A stretch of DNA of 64,000 bases, from positions 39,883-103,882 of the forward strand of contig CAZNVH010000015.1 in assembly GCA_964576525.1 (NCBI GenBank), written 5' to 3'. The notes under the pieces are model-generated. The model did no database searches, was not told where the DNA came from, and saw only the letters and a program-made list of their open reading frames with translations. Of the stretch, positions 28,051 through 34,468 are shown one piece after another. The DNA comes from an uncultured Enterobacteriaceae bacterium (GTDB lineage: Bacteria; Pseudomonadota; Gammaproteobacteria; Burkholderiales; SG8-39). Numbering within the stretch: position 1 is the first letter of the stretch; each line of letters opens with the position of its first letter. The position numbers and the translations under genes are program-made.

Positions 28051-29000
28051 TCGATCTTGATGCCGATATCCTTCACCGCTTTCGCGTACTTGGCGTAGTC
28101 GCGGCGGATCAGCGCCGCAAATTCTTCCGGCGTGGCGACGTAGGGGTCGAGGCCGCCGGCCGCGTTCAGCTTCTCCTTCACGTCCGGGGATTCGAGAACG
28201 CGCCGCAGTTCGGTTCTCAAGCGATTGAGGATTGCCTCGGGAATATTCGCCGGGCCAAACAAGCCGAGCCAGATCGAGTTCTCGAAGCCCGGATAGAACT
28301 CGCCGATCGTCGGCAGCTCGGGATACTGCGCCGAGCGCTTCGCGCCGGACACGGCGAGCGGCCGCAGCCGGCCGGCCTTGATCTGCGGCGCGTTCGAGCT
28401 TCCCGACCACATCGCCATGGTGTCGCCCGCCACGGTCGCGGTCGCCGCCGGGGCGCCGCCCTTGTAGGGCACGTGCAGCAGGTTGATGCCGGCGCGCTGC
28501 TTGAGCATCTCCATGGTGAGATGGTGCTGGCTGCCGTTGCCGCCCGAGGCGTAGGCGAGCGGCGGGTTCGCTTTGCGCGCGTACTCGATGAACTCCGGGA
28601 AAGTCCGCACCGGCAGCGACGGATGCACCGTCAGCACGAACTGGTTGACCGCCACCGTCGACACCGGTGTCAGGTCGCGCAGCGTGTCGATCGGCATCTT
28701 GTACAGGTGCGGGTTGATCGCGATCTGGCTGTCGGCGAGCAGCCCGAGGGTATGGCCATCGGGCTGGGCCCGCGCCACGAGCTCGTTGGCGATGTTGCCG
28801 TTCGCGCCGGCGCGGTTCTCGATCACCACCGGCTGGCCGAGGTTCTCGGCGAGCTTGTGCCCGATGACGCGCGCCGCGATGTCGGGCGCGCCGCCGGGCG
28901 GGATGGGCACGATGATGGTGATCGGCCGCGACGGAAACTGCGCGAACGCGCTCGCCGCGAAGTACAGCAGCGCGAAGAGAAGAAGAGCTCGAGCCTTCAT
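28047..29000 (-). CDS. Tripartite tricarboxylate transporter substrate-binding protein (Bug/TctC family)
   Basis: 317 aa from MKARALLLFALL, with FPSRPITIIVPIPPGGAPDI..VVIENRAGANG..HVPYKGGAPA, hallmark Bug-family motifs. Confidence 0.85.
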   Translation of the reverse strand: MKARALLLFALLYFAASAFAQFPSRPITIIVPIPPGGAPDIAARVIGHKLAENLGQPVVIENRAGANGNIANELVARAQPDGHTLGLLADSQIAINPHLYKMPIDTLRDLTPVSTVAVNQFVLTVHPSLPVRTFPEFIEYARKANPPLAYASGGNGSQHHLTMEMLKQRAGINLLHVPYKGGAPAATATVAGDTMAMWSGSSNAPQIKAGRLRPLAVSGAKRSAQYPELPTIGEFYPGFENSIWLGLFGPANIPEAILNRLRTELRRVLESPDVKEKLNAAGGLDPYVATPEEFAALIRRDYAKYAKAVKDIGIKID

Positions 29001-29016
29001 TGCCAACTCGAAAGGT

Positions 29017-29244
29017 TCAGGCCGCCAGGCCTCGCGCGTGCGCGATCTCGCCACCGCCTACCTCCCTCAGTTGCCCGGTAGACAAGGTAGTCACCGCGAC
29101 CGTCTCCCCGTCCAGCGCGATGAACTCGACCTCATAGCCCCCGCCGTCGCCATGGACGAGCACTACCGTACCGACATCGCCACGCTTCAGGCCATGTTCA
29201 GGCAGGTCACACTCCAGGACTACGGCATCCAGCTCGCGGATCAT
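29017..29244 (-). CDS. DUF4926-like small protein
   Basis: 75 aa from MIRELDAVVLECDLPEHGLKRGDVGTVVLVHGDGGGYEVEF. ATGA overlap with the upstream small gene. Confidence 0.55.
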   Translation of the reverse strand: MIRELDAVVLECDLPEHGLKRGDVGTVVLVHGDGGGYEVEFIALDGETVAVTTLSTGQLREVGGGEIAHARGLAA

Positions 29245-29588
29245 GGCGATTTCCTCTTCAGCGGATGCGCGGTAGCAAACCGCGGCACCGATGTCGTTTC
29301 GCTTATAAACCATACGCTGCGCACGTTCAAGATTCTACCGTCGGGCGCGGCCAGTGGGCCGTCAACTACATAACGCGTGCCGTACGGCGTGTTCCTGACT
29401 GAAGCGACGACATTCTCCGCGGCATGCCGGCGCAGCGCTTCAGCGAGCGCTCGCCAGTTTTTCACCGTAAACCCGTGCTTCCCGAAGAATTCGGCCTTGC
29501 TCCGCCCCGCCGGGTGGGTTGACGAGAGTAAATACCGGACGATCTTTGCCTCGGAGATCTCCGCCTTATCGGCATCGGGTAATCCCAT
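29241..29588 (-). CDS. DUF6883-like small protein
   Basis: 115 aa from MGLPDADKAEISEAKIVRYLLSSTHPAGRSKAEFFGKHGF. The pattern is recalled as DUF6883. It is paired with the DUF4926-like gene in a TA-like two-gene cassette. Confidence 0.5.
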   Translation of the reverse strand: MGLPDADKAEISEAKIVRYLLSSTHPAGRSKAEFFGKHGFTVKNWRALAEALRRHAAENVVASVRNTPYGTRYVVDGPLAAPDGRILNVRSVWFISETTSVPRFATAHPLKRKSP

Positions 29589-29684
29589 TTGATCTGCTTC
29601 TCGCTGGATCCAAGCAGGTAACGCGGCCTGGCCCGCTGCAGTTGACGCGCTCGACCGCGAGCGCCGACGCATCCCAGAACCGCA

Positions 29685-29975
29685 TTAGCGGCGTTCCCGG
29701 TCCTCGGCGATCAGGCGCGCGGCATCGGCCGCCTTGCGCAGCTTCGCCGGCCTCGGCAGGCGCCGCGGCGGCGCCTTGCGCCCGAGGCGGACGATGCCGC
29801 GTCTCTCGAGCTCGGCGAGGCGCGCGTCCTGCTGCGTCCGCGTCCCGGGTTCGAGCGGCGCGAGACGCGCCACCGGTCGTCCGCGATCGGTGATCAGAAT
29901 CGTCTCGCCACCCCGCACGCGATCGACGTAGGCCGAAAGACGGTTCTTCGCTTCCGAGATCGAGGCTCGCTTCAT
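29685..29975 (-). CDS. Phd/YefM-family type II antitoxin (no cognate toxin ORF seen)
   Basis: 96 aa from MKRASISEAKNRLSAYVDRVRGGETILITDRGRPVARLAPL, a classical Phd/YefM N-terminus. The listed start at 30092 adds Gly/Arg-rich junk. Confidence 0.75.
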   Translation of the reverse strand: MKRASISEAKNRLSAYVDRVRGGETILITDRGRPVARLAPLEPGTRTQQDARLAELERRGIVRLGRKAPPRRLPRPAKLRKAADAARLIAEDRERR

Positions 29976-29994
29976 CTGGCCACTATAGCCAGAT
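29974..29994. promoter_or_regulatory. 7-bp inverted repeat ATCTGGC-N7-GCCAGAT overlapping the antitoxin start codon (candidate operator)
   Basis: Read directly. On the coding strand it is ATCTGGC-TATAGTG-GCCAGAT-G, with a TATAGT -10-like hexamer in the spacer and the ATG formed by the right arm. Confidence 0.3.
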
Positions 29995-30145
29995 CGCCAG
30001 GCTGCGGGTAACGCGCCGGGCCCGCCTCCGCCGGTCGGCGGACCAAGGCGGGCACCGGTGCGGGCCGCGGGAACCGCGGCCGTTCTCATCATGGCGGGCC
30101 CTGGACGCCCGAGTGCTCACCCGGTGCGACCGTAATCGCGCCGGC

Positions 30146-31375
30146 TCAGGCGTTCGGGCGTGCTGGCGACGCGCAGGCCGTTGTTGTTGTTGCGGTTAGA
30201 AGTCGTGTTGTTGTTGCGGTTGGCGGAGCGCAGGTTCTGTGGATTGTTGTTCCACGAGCCGCCACGCTGGACGCGCTGCGCACAAAGGGCCAGCCAGGCT
30301 CGCGCGGCGCCTCGTTCGACGGATCGAACCAGCCGCCGCGAAAGATCGCGCGCCTCAGGCGCCAGGTGTCGGCATGTTCGGCATGCGCGATCCAGGCGCC
30401 GATGCGCCGCACAACTTCCTCTCCTGTCACCGTGCCCGCGCGCCAGCGGTCGCGCAGCCCGCGCAGCCGGTTGCGGAAGCGCCTCACATTGTCTTCCGGC
30501 AGCCGGCGGTAGCCGCGCGGCGCGAGCACGTAGCCGAGAAAACGCGCCGGCGCGGCGCTCTCGGCGATGTGCGTCTTTTCGGGGTGAAGCAGGAGCCGCC
30601 TGCCGCAGAGAAAGCGCGCAAGCTCGCCCCGCCACGCTTCGAGGGTATCCACGCCGTCCGCAAACAGGGCGAAGTCGTCGACGTAGCGCACATAGGGGGC
30701 GCGCAGCACTTCCGTGGCGAAGTGATCCAGGCAGTCGAGATACAGGTTGGCGAAGAACTGGCTGGTGAGGTTGCCGATCGGCAGGCCGCGCCTGCGCCCA
30801 AAGGGCGAGAACAAATCATCTCCGGGAAAATAACGCTCGACCGGCTCCTGGCGATTGGCGCCGTCGACGATGGCATCGAGCAGCGCGAGTGTGCGCGCGC
30901 AGGCGATGCGGCGCCGGAACTCCGCCTTCAATATTTCATGATCGACGGCCGGGAAATAGCGGTAGACGTCGCAGCGGAGCACGTGGCGGTGCCGGTCGCG
31001 GTAGCGCTCGTAGCAGGCGACCGCGCGGTGCGAGCCCTTGCCCGTGCGGTTGGCATACGTGTTGGCGATGAAACCGCGCTCGAAGAGCGGCTCGACCACC
31101 GCGCAGAGCGCGTGGTGCACGACGCGGTCGCGAAACGGCGCCGCGGAGATGTTGCGCGGCTTGGGATCGAGCACGCGGAAGGTGACGTAGCCGCCGGGCC
31201 GCCAGCTTCCCTCCAGCAGCCCGCGCTCGAGCTTGAGCAGCTCGCGCTCCAGGTTGGCCATGAACGCTGCGGCGCCGGGCTTCCTGCGCTTGCCCGTGAC
31301 GGCCCGCAGCGCCGCTTCGTGCAGCGCGCGAAAGTTCGCGATGCGCGCAAAGAGGTCTTCAGCCCTGCGCGGCAC
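30146..31375 (-). CDS. DGR reverse transcriptase (Brt-like)
   Basis: Motifs KPRNISAAPFRDRVVHHAL, YANRTGKGSHRAV, LPIGNLTSQFFANLYL, YVRYVDDFALF, FLGYVL and AHAEHADTWRL. The probable start is GTG 31375 (17-nt overlap with avd), with an alternative ATG at 31453. The last 60 or so codons read through the TR in another frame (TTT runs). Confidence 0.88.
   Translation of the reverse strand: MPRRAEDLFARIANFRALHEAALRAVTGKRRKPGAAAFMANLERELLKLERGLLEGSWRPGGYVTFRVLDPKPRNISAAPFRDRVVHHALCAVVEPLFERGFIANTYANRTGKGSHRAVACYERYRDRHRHVLRCDVYRYFPAVDHEILKAEFRRRIACARTLALLDAIVDGANRQEPVERYFPGDDLFSPFGRRRGLPIGNLTSQFFANLYLDCLDHFATEVLRAPYVRYVDDFALFADGVDTLEAWRGELARFLCGRRLLLHPEKTHIAESAAPARFLGYVLAPRGYRRLPEDNVRRFRNRLRGLRDRWRAGTVTGEEVVRRIGAWIAHAEHADTWRLRRAIFRGGWFDPSNEAPREPGWPFVRSASSVAARGTTIHRTCAPPTATTTRLLTATTTTACASPARPNA
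30163..30285 (-). repeat. DGR template repeat (TR), 123 nt, AAC-rich
   Basis: Coding-strand sequence is TTGTGCGCAGCGCGTCCAGCGTGGCGGCTCGTGGAACAACAATCCACAGAACCTGCGCTCCGCCAACCGCAACAACAACACGACTTCTAACCGCAACAACAACAACGGCCTGCGCGTCGCCAG. It aligns to 31794..31922 with differences only at TR adenines plus one 6-nt indel. Confidence 0.9.
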
Positions 31376-31721
31376 GGTTCGCCTTCTTCCAGCCGCCGAC
31401 CAGGCGCCCCGTCTCGTCGAGGTTGCGCGCCGCGTGCTCGTAGCGGCGCGCATCGAGGAGCCTCAGGTCGTGCGCGAGGCGAAACAGGATGCGCAGCTTG
31501 TCCAGGCCTAGGTTCGCCGCGTCGAGCGCCTGCTCGCGCCGGCGGTCGTAGGTGGCCTCGATCAGGCGCTCGAGCACGTCGAGCGCGCCCGCCTGGATGC
31601 GGTCGCCGAGCAGGAACTTCTGCGAGCGCGGGAACTTCTCCACCGTCGGGATGAGCCACAACAGAAACCGGTACAGCGCTTCAAGAGCCGGGCCGGTTTT
31701 GCGCGCTGAGCTGTCCGCCAT
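31359..31721 (-). CDS. avd: DGR accessory variability determinant (Avd, four-helix-bundle protein)
   Basis: 120 aa with LEALYRFLLWLIPTVEKFPRSQKFLLGDRIQAGALDVLERLIEA, typical of the four-helix-bundle/Avd family. It sits between the target and the RT. Confidence 0.8.
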   Translation of the reverse strand: MADSSARKTGPALEALYRFLLWLIPTVEKFPRSQKFLLGDRIQAGALDVLERLIEATYDRRREQALDAANLGLDKLRILFRLAHDLRLLDARRYEHAARNLDETGRLVGGWKKANRAAQG

Positions 31722-31729
31722 TCAAATTT

Positions 31730-31753
31730 CCGCCGCGCCTCACGGCGCGGCGG
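31730..31753. other. Perfect 10-bp GC stem / 4-nt loop hairpin between the VR-bearing gene and avd
   Basis: CCGCCGCGCC (31730-31739), loop TCAC, GGCGCGGCGG (31744-31753). The loop on the coding strand is GTGA. It lies 40 nt downstream of the VR 3' end. Confidence 0.7.
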
Positions 31754-31783
31754 CAAGAGTCAAGGAGTCAAAGATGCAAGAGG

Positions 31784-33640
31784 CTAGTTTGTCCTGGCGA
31801 CGCGCAGGCCGAAGTCGAAGCCGCGGTAAGAAGCCGAGTAGCTGAAGTAGCCGCGGACGGCGGAGCGCAGGGACCGCGGATTGATGAACCACGAGCCGCC
31901 ACGCTGGACGCGCCGCGCACAATTGCTGGAAGTCCACGCGCTGCCGTCGCCCGGCGCCCCGGCATAGTTCGAATTCCAGCAATCCTCGACCCATTCCCAG
32001 ACGTTGCCATGCACGTCGTACAGCCCGAAAGCGTTCGGCGAATATTTTCCAACCTCCACCGTCTTGCCTTCTTTCGTCCCGGTCGGGCTCCCCGCGTAAG
32101 AGACCGAGGCATCATAGTTTGCCTGCTGCGGCGAGATGCTGTTGCCCCAGGAGAATGCGGTCGTCGTGCCGGCGCGCGCGACGTATTCCCATTCCGCCTC
32201 GGTGAGCAGCCGGTAGCTCTTGCCCGTCTTGCGCGAGAGCCAGGCGACGTACTGCTTCGCGTCATCCCACGAAACGTGGATGACCGGCCGCCGGCCGCGG
32301 CCGGAGTCGCTCGGGTTATGGCTGCAGCCGTTTTCGCGCACGCAGGCGTCCCATTCGTCGAAGGTGACTTCGTATTTGCCCGCGGCGAAGGAACGGGAGA
32401 TTGTTACCTGGTGCTGCGGGCCTTCGTCGCCGCCTCGCCCAGGCTCGGACTGGGGCGATCCCATCATGAAGCTGCCGGGCGGGATCATGATCATCTCGGG
32501 GCAGACATCGCAGTCGCGGAAGCTCGTGCCGGGCCGGGCCGAAGGAGGCGAGACCACGCTCGGCGGCGCGACAACGACCACCTGCTGCGGCGGCGGCGCG
32601 GAAATCGTGGGCGCGACAACGGTCACCTGCGGTCGCGGGGCGGAAACCGCGGGCGCGGCGGCTGGGGCCGGCGCGGGGCTCAACGCCTTCAGGCGGGCGC
32701 GGGCGACGCCGGCAAAGCGGCCCTTCGGGTACTGCTCGAGATAGGCGTTGAGCTCATCGGCGTTGCGGCTGTTCCTGACGCTCTCCCACAGCGCGAGCTC
32801 GAGCGCCACGGGATCGGTGGCGGGGGTTGCTGCCGCGGGAGTTGGCGTGGTCTGGGGAGCAGCAGCGACCTGGGTCCCAGGCCGGAAGTAGAAGTCGCCA
32901 ACCAGAGAGGTCGATTCCCAGGGCGTCTGCTTGCCGCCGGTTTCCCTGACCACGCCGGCGCGGGTGCGCTGGAAGACCTTGAGGAGATCGGTATCAGACT
33001 GATTCAGGCTCGCGAGCAGATGCTTGGTGTACGTGCCGTTGCGTCCCGCACCGTCCGCCGCCACTGAGCCGGGCGCGGTGGCGAAGGCGATGACGCTGCC
33101 AGTAGCGGCGTTCATCTGCGCGAGCCCGCGCGACGCCGAACGGAAGCTGCGCGCGAAGGGATTGTTGCGGCAGGCATCGAGGACGATGATGCTGACCTTG
33201 ACCTGCGCCTCTTCCATGGTGCGCAGCGCGAGGTTCGCATTGATCGCCAGGTCCTCGGCCTCGGCTTCGCTCTGGATGTCGGCCCCGACAGGGACGAGGT
33301 AGTTCTCCCCTTTCACCTGCACGCCGTGGCCCGCGAAAAAGAAGAGGCCGACCTGAGCGCGTCGCAGCTCGGCGCCGAACTCGCGAATCGCTTGCCGCAT
33401 GTCGCGGCTGCCGGCATTGCGCTTGAGGATAACCTTGAAGCCGAACCGCTCGAGAGCCTTGGCGATGTCCGCCGCGTCATTCGCCGGGTTGGCGAGCGGC
33501 GAGTCCTTGTAGGCCGAGTTGCCGATCACGAGCGCCACGCGCTGCTCGCCCGCCTGGGCGGGAGCGACATTGAGGTTGCGCTGCGCGGCGGCGGTGGCCG
33601 GCACAGCGGAAATCAGGACCGCGAGAAGAATCCGCCACAT
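31784..33640 (-). CDS. DGR target protein: signal peptide + caspase-like peptidase C14 domain + Pro/Ala-rich linker + FGE-sulfatase (C-type-lectin fold) domain carrying the VR
   Basis: 618 aa from MWRILLAVLISAVPATAAAQ (ATG 33640 preceded by GGGAGGG; the listed start at 33658 is TTG). Caspase His/Cys dyad contexts are FFFAGHGVQ and IVLDACRNNPF. The FGE-sulfatase region is MIMIPPGSFMMGSP...VSWDDAKQYVAWLS...RLLTEAEWEYVARAG...GLYDVHGNVWEWVEDCW...RVQRGGSW. Confidence 0.85.
   Translation of the reverse strand: MWRILLAVLISAVPATAAAQRNLNVAPAQAGEQRVALVIGNSAYKDSPLANPANDAADIAKALERFGFKVILKRNAGSRDMRQAIREFGAELRRAQVGLFFFAGHGVQVKGENYLVPVGADIQSEAEAEDLAINANLALRTMEEAQVKVSIIVLDACRNNPFARSFRSASRGLAQMNAATGSVIAFATAPGSVAADGAGRNGTYTKHLLASLNQSDTDLLKVFQRTRAGVVRETGGKQTPWESTSLVGDFYFRPGTQVAAAPQTTPTPAAATPATDPVALELALWESVRNSRNADELNAYLEQYPKGRFAGVARARLKALSPAPAPAAAPAVSAPRPQVTVVAPTISAPPPQQVVVVAPPSVVSPPSARPGTSFRDCDVCPEMIMIPPGSFMMGSPQSEPGRGGDEGPQHQVTISRSFAAGKYEVTFDEWDACVRENGCSHNPSDSGRGRRPVIHVSWDDAKQYVAWLSRKTGKSYRLLTEAEWEYVARAGTTTAFSWGNSISPQQANYDASVSYAGSPTGTKEGKTVEVGKYSPNAFGLYDVHGNVWEWVEDCWNSNYAGAPGDGSAWTSSNCARRVQRGGSWFINPRSLRSAVRGYFSYSASYRGFDFGLRVARTN
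31794..31922 (-). repeat. DGR variable repeat (VR), 129 nt, at the 3' end of the target gene
   Basis: Coding strand is TTGTGCGCGGCGCGTCCAGCGTGGCGGCTCGTGGTTCATCAATCCGCGGTCCCTGCGCTCCGCCGTCCGCGGCTACTTCAGCTACTCGGCTTCTTACCGCGGCTTCGACTTCGGCCTGCGCGTCGCCAG. It ends 7 nt before the TAG stop. Confidence 0.9.
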
Positions 33641-33751
33641 GAACCCTCCCTGGCTCAAGGCGAACTAGGCGAAGGTATTGTAGGCCTACGGGAGCAAGCA
33701 GCGGCGGTGCTGCTGCACCGACCTATAGCGGAATATCACCTGCCAGAGAAC

Positions 33752-34381
33752 CTAGAAGGAGAACTTGAGCCGCAGGTCCCAGGCGTCGACCCGGAGGTCG
33801 TCGAGGATCTGGAACCGGGTCCAGGCGATCCCAGCCGAGAGGCCTCCGGCCAGCATGTACGACGCGCCGACCCCGAAGTACGGCGAGACGCCTTCGTCCG
33901 ACGAGGCCGCGGGAACGGGCTTGTTGTCGAAGGTACCCGCGCCCGTCGCGGTCACGTCCGCGCTCCAGAAGTAGCCTCCCATGCGCGCATTGAGCCTGAA
34001 GCGCTCGATGTAGGTCTCGAAAACCGGCCCGAGAAACACGCCCGCACTCTCGATTCTCACGTTGAGCGGGCCGGGCGAATTGAACTTCAGCCGGCCGATC
34101 GCACCGGCTTGCGGCCCGGGGGCGCTGATCCCGGTCTCGCCGAGGTCGCGGTATCCGGCTTCGATGCCGACGAAACGGTTGAACATGTATCCGATGCCGA
34201 CCGACCAGGTCGCGTCGGCGCGATCCGACGAGAAACCCTGGTCCTCGAAGTCGTTGTAGTTCGTCAGCCCCTTGCCGAGGGCGACTTCGGCGAAGAACTG
34301 GGCCTGCGCCGCGAGCGCGCAAAGCCAGAGCGCGAGCCCAACGCAGAGCGAAAGCACAGGCTTCAATCGAACCTCCTTCAC
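33752..34381 (-). CDS. Outer-membrane beta-barrel protein (OmpA-like barrel / OMP_b-brl family)
   Basis: 209 aa with a signal peptide ending AAQAQ, alternating amphipathic strands and a C-terminal ...WDLRLKFSF (terminal Phe). GTG start. Confidence 0.65.
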   Translation of the reverse strand: MKEVRLKPVLSLCVGLALWLCALAAQAQFFAEVALGKGLTNYNDFEDQGFSSDRADATWSVGIGYMFNRFVGIEAGYRDLGETGISAPGPQAGAIGRLKFNSPGPLNVRIESAGVFLGPVFETYIERFRLNARMGGYFWSADVTATGAGTFDNKPVPAASSDEGVSPYFGVGASYMLAGGLSAGIAWTRFQILDDLRVDAWDLRLKFSF

Positions 34382-34391
34382 CGGAGAAATC

Positions 34392-34468
34392 TGGTAGGCG
34401 CGATTGGACTCGAACCAACGACCCCCACCATGTCAAGGTGGTGCTCTAACCAGCTGAGCTACGCGCCT
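34392..34468 (-). tRNA. tRNA-Val (anticodon GAC)
   Basis: Reverse complement is AGGCGCGTAGCTCAGCTGGTTAGAGCACCACCTTGACATGGTGGGGGTCGTTGGTTCGAGTCCAATCGCGCCTACCA, with anticodon loop TTGACAT and an encoded CCA. Confidence 0.92.

Follow-up and report, generated by a model that had tools for sequence, protein, structure and literature searches.

In the diversity-generating retroelement (DGR) of Bordetella phage BPP-1, the priming nucleotide, A56, lies in a 140-nt spacer that follows the template repeat (TR), and 20 nt ahead of the TR are needed as well (Handa et al. 2018, PMC6182149; Handa et al. bioRxiv 10.1101/2023.10.23.563531). According to the cryo-electron microscopy (cryo-EM) structure in the latter report, the spacer opens with an Avd-binding stem-loop of 11 bp with a UNCG loop (Sp3-33), which is followed by a primer strand (Sp47-56) paired with TR117-129 and by 2 linker nucleotides. 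Next, Sp59-70 pairs with an upstream segment of avd to form the ‘cPRT Stop’, and after this stop strand come a short stem-loop with adenosines, the single-stranded ‘Thumb Ring’ and a long RT-binding stem-loop with interior loops (Sp95-139; RT, reverse transcriptase). Of 278 DGRs with Avd, the same authors predicted an Avd-binding stem-loop and a cPRT Stop duplex in 207, by single-sequence folding of 40 nt upstream and 100 nt downstream of the TR. A structured RNA located right 3′ of the DGR TR and proposed to be the RT primer is also represented in Rfam as RF03022 (Phage_DGR), the RT-10 motif of Weinberg et al. 2017 (PMC5737381). Here we describe a DGR in which the TR and its RNA come after the RT gene. 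It lies on the minus strand of a 64,000-nt stretch of an uncultured bacterium (contig CAZNVH010000015.1 of assembly GCA_964576525.1), hereafter called the window, to which all coordinates refer.

The locus is a chromosomal DGR with the minus-strand order target gene, avd, RT, TR and non-coding tract, the variable repeat (VR) forming the C-terminal end of the target. We identify it as such because the three genes match RVT_1, bAvd and FGE-sulfatase in Pfam, because 24 of the 25 substitutions between TR and VR fall at TR adenines (14 A>T, 9 A>G and 1 A>C, the remaining one being C/G at 30162), and because relatives have adenine-biased VRs as well. It shares with BPP-1 an Avd, a DGR-type RT, adenine-specific TR/VR differences and a target of the C-type-lectin fold with the VR at its C terminus. 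When one genome per species was scanned for relatives of the RT, 65 loci were found, mostly in uncultured Alphaproteobacteria, Acidobacteriota, Binatia and others. The TR begins within 53 nt downstream of the conserved end of the RT (..GGWF) at 50 of these loci, and since it follows the RT so regularly, the avd-RT-TR layout is the norm in this RT clade and not a peculiarity of the locus. For 35 TRs aligned against the sequence upstream of them, about 31 had a full-length VR, with 7–23 adenine differences and mostly 0–1 (at most 5) others.

An earlier reading of this DNA, made from the sequence only, had called the layout non-canonical. It does differ from that of BPP-1, where the order is avd-TR-RNA-RT and not avd-RT-TR-RNA, and the claim that no TR sits between avd and RT holds: invariant TR segments, searched against the whole 64-kb window, matched the TR and the VR only, leaving as the sole TR the one in the 3′ tail of the RT-frame open reading frame (ORF). 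The layout itself, however, has already been catalogued. Comparison with the survey classes, a check proposed in the sequence-only reading, places the window in Architecture B2 (avd-RT-TR) as outlined by Wu et al. 2018, with avd, RT and TR in this order on one strand and no other accessory gene. The outline of DiGReF groups 2 and 3 has the TR downstream of, or overlapping, the annotated RT ORF, and here the TR (30285..30160) is found inside an ORF ending at 30146, as in group 3. The class descriptions in the two surveys sort DGRs by gene order only, with no description of the RNA around the TR and no explanation of the ORF overlap. The locus adds one more case to a DGR layout on record since 2012 and 2018 and leaves the picture of DGRs unchanged, and the functional idea set out below is already published in general form. 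What is new is a covariation-backed model of the RNA for this clade, evidence that the RNA module is portable, and read-through as the explanation for the overlap of the ORF with the TR.

The tract 3′ of the TR is a conserved, covarying structured RNA. Across 46 loci the sequence after the TR is strongly conserved with compensatory changes, and the same is true of the 75 nt before the TR. Covariation-based structure prediction, which had been suggested as a check, was run on an alignment of 41 elements (A1, made with MAFFT) and gave four covarying helices; these were defined partly by eye and their pairs were then counted. Over the 39 pairs 95.3% of cells are paired, compared with 38–47% when the partners are slid by 1–3 columns, 27 of the pairs change on both sides, and none of 500 shuffles reached the observed values. 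RNAalifold, given only the downstream part and no guidance, again yielded helices 2, 3 and 4 together with an inner helix in the long stem-loop, and the single-sequence fold of the window contains the stem-loop of helix 3 (SL1), an 8-bp GC hairpin and the long stem-loop (z = –4.25). A 3-bp helix (CGC/GCG) that would close SL1 is unsupported in several relatives and was left uncounted. One more hairpin, P0, formed over the last conserved RT codons, has moderate support and may be a component of the DGR RNA.

Taken in the 5′ to 3′ direction, the conserved module of about 330 nt (30341..30015) starts with P0; the TR comes next, set between an upstream strand of 10 nt and a 3′-flanking strand of 7 nt, and then SL1. 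After SL1, one strand pairs back to the 3′ flank of the TR and, past a CC(A) linker, another pairs with the upstream strand. The mostly unpaired CAUGAUGAG motif, an optional hairpin and a long stem-loop with a bulge complete the module. Farther 3′ than this long stem-loop, relatives show no sequence conservation. The optional element is the 8-bp hairpin to which the sequence-only reading had drawn attention: it is indeed present at 30081..30063, but it is a variable insertion, neither a core element nor a likely priming site.

This order closely follows that of the BPP-1 RNA. In both, upstream sequence and TR are followed by a stem-loop with a UACG tetraloop and then by two pairing strands, the first for the 3′ end of the TR and the second, past a short linker, for the upstream sequence; an unpaired stretch then leads to a long bulged stem-loop. 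At the level of structure, four BPP-1-type features are found here, namely the tetraloop stem-loop 3′ of the TR, the duplex at the TR 3′ end, the duplex between upstream and downstream sequence, and the long 3′ stem-loop; binding of proteins to them would follow by analogy. The tetraloop stem-loop just 3′ of the TR (UNCG loops are common in Pseudomonadota) and the upstream/downstream pairing also agree with the set predicted by Handa et al., to which our data add covariation support across 41 elements as well as the primer duplex, the long stem-loop and P0. With RF03022 the RNA shares a tetraloop stem-loop in first place and a long stem-loop in last. There are differences from BPP-1, too: the upstream strand comes from the 3′ end of the RT gene and not from that of avd, TR/VR homology stops at the primer duplex, whereas in BPP-1 it runs 17 nt beyond the start site, and the P0 hairpin is additional.

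The module is not tied to its place after the RT. A covariance model built from the downstream RNA (R1) has one significant site in the window (30171..30008, by construction) and further sites in loci outside the training set. In the sister elements L025, L027, L036 and L037, whose RTs are 65–71% identical, the order is target-TR-RNA-avd-RT; the TR there lies between target and avd with an upstream strand of its own, and the R1 match comes directly after it. Upstream strand, TR and downstream RNA therefore move as a block within one RT clade. Just 5′ of the upstream strand, the sisters with the TR upstream of avd have, as judged by eye only, a possible hairpin-forming sequence. The real cis-acting unit appears to be a portable RNA module made of upstream strand, TR and about 145 nt of downstream RNA.

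The explanation that we favor, and to which as a whole we give a probability of about 80%, is that of a DGR with a cis-priming, BPP-1-like RNA module and an incidental RT tail. By analogy with BPP-1, a complex of RT and Avd would bind both SL1 and the long stem-loop. The duplex at the TR 3′ flank would hold the invariant GCGUCCA segment (30108..30102) so that one of its nucleotides sits in the active site and primes cDNA in cis; the cDNA would begin beside G30163, where TR/VR homology ends, and the long-range duplex would halt its synthesis once the 5′ edge of the TR is reached. The equivalent G marks the end of TR/VR homology in about 30 elements, 1 nt 5′ of the covarying duplex. We infer priming in cis because GCGUCCA is invariant and because the homology ends where a cis-primed cDNA would begin. 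The earlier proposal that the tract 3′ of the TR is the counterpart of the BPP-1 spacer gains support from its covariation, from its pairing with the TR flank and the upstream sequence, and from its movement together with the TR.

Several points weigh against this explanation. The element and its clade are known here from sequence alone, and the priming role is assigned by analogy. The helices were partly defined by eye on the same sequences on which they were scored, which inflates the contrast with the slid controls, and the sequences are related to one another, so that the shuffle counts are not probabilities. In BPP-1 a 2-bp UUCG stem-loop and unpaired adenosines (AA, with A-minor contacts) come after the stop strand, for which the window has no clear counterpart; what follows here is the invariant purine-rich UGAUGAG and then, in about half of the elements, the variable hairpin. 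The last paired base of the primer strand is a U, while BPP-1 primes from an A, which leaves the priming nucleotide uncertain. Moreover, RF03022 had no match in window positions 29000-34000 even at E<=10, Rfam as a whole giving chance-level matches only, and R1 had no match at the spacer of BPP-1 (positions 2743-2886), its matches elsewhere (E>1) lying at unrelated places. As a positive control, BPP-1 itself scores 104.7 bits with RF03022 against a gathering score of 50; six relatives of our element gave nothing at the Rfam gathering thresholds. Homology to the BPP-1 spacer was considered and dropped, covariance models detecting no similarity in either direction, and because they fail both ways the link to BPP-1 rests on architecture and not on detectable homology. 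Judged by these models, the RNA is a separate, uncatalogued family of a known kind, outside RF03022, which could join Rfam beside it. Covariation in 41 elements, in a clade far from BPP-1 in sequence, supports the generality of the cryo-EM priming and stop architecture.

It could also be that the conserved RNA belongs to the DGR but serves transcript stability, assembly of the ribonucleoprotein only, or homing, with priming from elsewhere, for example from nicked target DNA or an RNA 3′-OH. The priming nucleotide cannot be read from sequence, a model of priming by nicked template RNA has been put forward for BPP-1 in PMC5703328, as outlined there, and the missing RF03022 match would be in line with such a role. 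We nevertheless find this unlikely: a duplex stands exactly at the 3′ edge of TR/VR homology and is followed by a short linker and a second duplex, the very arrangement that positions Sp A56 in BPP-1, and the GCGUCCA segment is invariant. Cis-priming by the module stays our preferred reading of the RNA, and it is left to account for the RT ORF that runs across it.

The extent of this ORF depends on its start. The stop codon of avd (TGA, 31361-31359) falls inside the RT ORF, and the overlap of the two genes, rightly noticed in the sequence-only reading, is 17 nt when counted from GTG 31375. ATG 31453 was rejected as the RT start, several relatives having an in-frame stop 30–36 nt upstream of the conserved start. 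Where the window has GTG 31375, relatives keep an ATG or GTG, and an independent gene call in two metagenome contigs that are identical to the window likewise starts the RT 17 nt ahead of the avd stop. Because of this conserved start codon, the upstream stops and the independent call, we take the RT to be 31375..30146. On inspection of the relatives, the 17-nt overlap recurs within the clade.

At the other end, conserved RT sequence ends with ..RGGWF (30326), followed by DPS to 30317; the C-terminal motif AWIAHAEHADTWRLR is shared with relatives. It had been noted that the conserved part ends near 30330 and that the ORF then crosses the TR in another frame to 30146, and this is what we see: across the TR the RT frame is one base off the target frame, gives TATTTRLLTATTTT and reaches its stop at UGA 30148-30146. 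At 41 of the 50 loci with a TR right after the RT the whole TR is read through in the RT frame; one locus stops within the TR, and eight stop before it or at its start. The frame of entry into the TR splits 29/13/8. Because the TR is entered in all three frames, the translated tails are wholly different between frame classes, and as the distinct lengths of the spacer from GGWF to the TR are spread about evenly over the frames, selection preserving the frame of the tail was rejected. Among the frame-1 loci, 18 of 29 stop 69 nt past the TR, at the UGAUGA of the near-invariant CAUGAUGAG motif, which is equally conserved in loci of other frames. The window has its stop earlier, in GCCUGAGCC, where most relatives have GCCGGAGCC. 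The RTs of L024, L025, L027 and L036 end 5–23 codons past GGWF, and more distant RTs end at the GGWF-equivalent position (L044, L046) or 1–2 residues short of it (L049).

Since all three frames are used, early stops occur in 8 of 50 loci and sister RTs end soon after GGWF, the tail is dispensable. The ~59 codons appear to be an incidental by-product of read-through, presumably translated, and the RT ORF would overlap the TR merely through placement of the RNA module right after GGWFDPS without an intervening stop. In this layout, gene callers accordingly make the RT about 59 codons too long.

It is conceivable that ending RT translation within its own template RNA is functional and not incidental, since the ribosome must cross the TR in those 41 of 50 clade members and the usual stop is an invariant UGAUGA in folded RNA. 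If so, transit of the ribosome could hold the RNA unfolded and make translation and templating mutually exclusive; alternatively, nascent RT could be handed over directly to its own coding RNA, with a cis-preference as seen in LINE-1 ORF2p. We regard this as distinctly improbable. A functional C-terminal RT domain of 59 residues, which would make the overlap a true dual-coding one, is in our judgment very improbable. In its favor, translation presumably continues through the extension, the ORF being open as far as 30146, the crossing of the TR is widespread, and 18 of the 29 frame-1 loci have the UGAUGA end in common. This end, however, sits in an RNA motif that is conserved in loci of other frames too, and the use of three frames, the nearly even spread of spacer lengths over them, the eight loci that stop ahead of the TR and the short RTs of the sister and more distant elements all speak against a domain. 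The statement in the sequence-only reading that the C-terminal tail is not conserved RT therefore stands, no need for its some 60 residues as conserved sequence having come to light.

That the tract has nothing to do with the DGR and is a terminator, or the leader or operator of the Phd/YefM antitoxin gene downstream, is scarcely tenable: it does lie directly upstream of that gene, with a palindrome (CTGGCTATAGTGGCCAG) just ahead of ATG 29975, but at least 48 elements with differing downstream sequence conserve its structured part (30159..30015), which follows the TR even where the TR precedes avd and forms duplexes with the TR flank and with upstream sequence, while no terminator or promoter was found in the tract and only 30014..29976 is plausibly antitoxin-related. 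These final ~40 nt ahead of ATG 29975 probably do belong to the antitoxin gene. The whole of 30145..29976 is in practice non-coding. This had been claimed before and is borne out by the antitoxin match, which begins at ATG 29975: a mechanical ORF (30092..29685, 135 aa) starts at ATG 30092 within the CAUGAUGAG motif, and its Phd/YefM domain extends from residue 40, which is ATG 29975. The antitoxin gene is at risk of being mis-extended by annotators from ATG 30092 into the DGR RNA. Coordinates of all features are collected in Table 1.

Table 1. Features of the DGR, its RNA and its surroundings. Positions are those of the window, except for the relocated modules, which are given by locus.
Feature	Position	Strand	Evidence and remarks
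Template repeat (TR)	~30285..30160	minus	TR/VR alignment; homology to VR ends at G30163 except for a chance AC match
Variable repeat (VR)	31789..31922	minus	TR/VR alignment; 134 nt, 3′ end of target gene
P0 hairpin over last conserved RT codons (FRGGWFDPS)	30302..30341	minus	82% paired versus 26–57% in slid controls; 10/11 pairs change on both sides
Helix 1, upstream strand UGGCUGGCCC	30287..30296	minus	Long-range duplex bracketing the TR; corresponds to the avd strand of the BPP-1 cPRT Stop; 98.3% paired; 6/10 pairs change on both sides
Helix 1, downstream strand GGGCCCGCCA	30092..30101	minus	Pairs with 30296..30287
Helix 2, TR 3′-flank strand ACGCCCG	30155..30161	minus	Pairs with candidate primer strand 30111..30105; 95% paired; 3 of 7 pairs change on both sides
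Candidate primer strand CGGGCGU and linker CCA	30102..30111	minus	U30105, C30103 and A30102 invariant in 41/41 elements
Helix 3 (SL1), candidate Avd-binding stem-loop	30121..30144	minus	10-bp stem, UACG (UNCG/YNMG) tetraloop; 7/10 pairs change on both sides
Near-invariant CAUGAUGAG motif	30085..30093	minus	C30093 and A30092 overlap 3′ end of downstream duplex strand; 30091-30085 in no counted helix
8-bp GC hairpin GGCCGCGG-UUC-CCGCGGCC	30063..30081	minus	Variable expansion; in about half of relatives; mostly-gap columns
Helix 4, long stem-loop, candidate RT-binding	30015..30058	minus	Conserved UUG(G) bulge; 11/12 outer pairs change on both sides
Relocated modules	L025:3150-3580; L027:3330-3740; L036:3300-3740; L037:1420-1900		
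avd (accessory variability determinant)	31359..31721	minus	120 aa; bAvd PF22296, E 4.8e-18
RT-frame ORF, full extent	31453..30146	minus	RVT_1, E 4e-14 (Pfam)
RT ORF from supported start	30146..31375	minus	Conserved GTG to UGA; conserved part to GGWFDPS (30317), then ~56-59 codons of non-conserved read-through
DGR target gene	31784..33658	minus	624 aa; Peptidase_C14 PF00656 6e-39, FGE-sulfatase PF03781 5e-56 (Pfam); predicted signal peptide
GC hairpin, candidate target-recognition or terminator element	31730..31753	minus	10 bp, GUGA loop, ~30 nt past target stop, after CT-rich tract
Phd/YefM antitoxin gene	29685..29975	minus	Outside the DGR; 3′ limit of the tract; Pfam match from residue 40 of a longer ORF

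Relative to the TR, the VR has a 6-nt insertion at the (AAC)3 run. It is not an assembly error, because an identical VR is present in two independent metagenome assemblies: the two contigs mentioned above are 100% identical to the window including the VR, and no VR variants occur among these two samples only. The VR looks like the derived length state, because the length of the TR agrees with that of relatives, and the insertion would be consistent with the RT having slipped on the AAC repeat of the template in the course of retrohoming. Opposite AAC AAC AAC of the TR, the VR has the codons GGC TAC TTC AGC TAC, all five of the form NNC. VR/TR length differences are found in relatives as well (L001, L009 and L057).

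The FGE-sulfatase domain, which has the C-type-lectin fold, occupies residues 386-622 of the 624 of the target, and the VR ends 5 nt ahead of the target stop. The protein starts with a hydrophobic leader and a caspase (Peptidase_C14) domain, which a linker rich in proline and alanine joins to the variable lectin-fold domain. Judged by this composition, it looks like a secreted or periplasmic protease carrying a hypervariable binding domain.

In about 35 related loci the interval between the target stop and avd contains a CT-rich tract (consensus near ATCTTTACCTCTTTACCTC) and then a GC hairpin, often followed by a T run. The corresponding interval of the window (31783..31722) has the CT-rich tract and the hairpin; the T run is absent. 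A hairpin flanking the VR has reportedly been described in BPP-1 (PMC3240598), and on this basis the hairpin at 31753..31730 may be a target-recognition hairpin of the BPP-1 kind, a terminator, or both.

A tRNA-Val gene is located at 34392..34468, about 730 nt upstream of the target gene, and three small genes, for the Phd/YefM antitoxin, DUF6883 and DUF4926, lie just downstream of the DGR (29017..29975). The DGR may be located in a small island beside a tRNA gene. Elsewhere in the clade, more than one copy per genome is seen: a DGR of this type occurs three times in one alphaproteobacterial metagenome-assembled genome, the copies being near-identical and located on three contigs (L008, L010 and L012), and one Poriferihabitans genome has two copies about 47 kb apart (L030 and L031).

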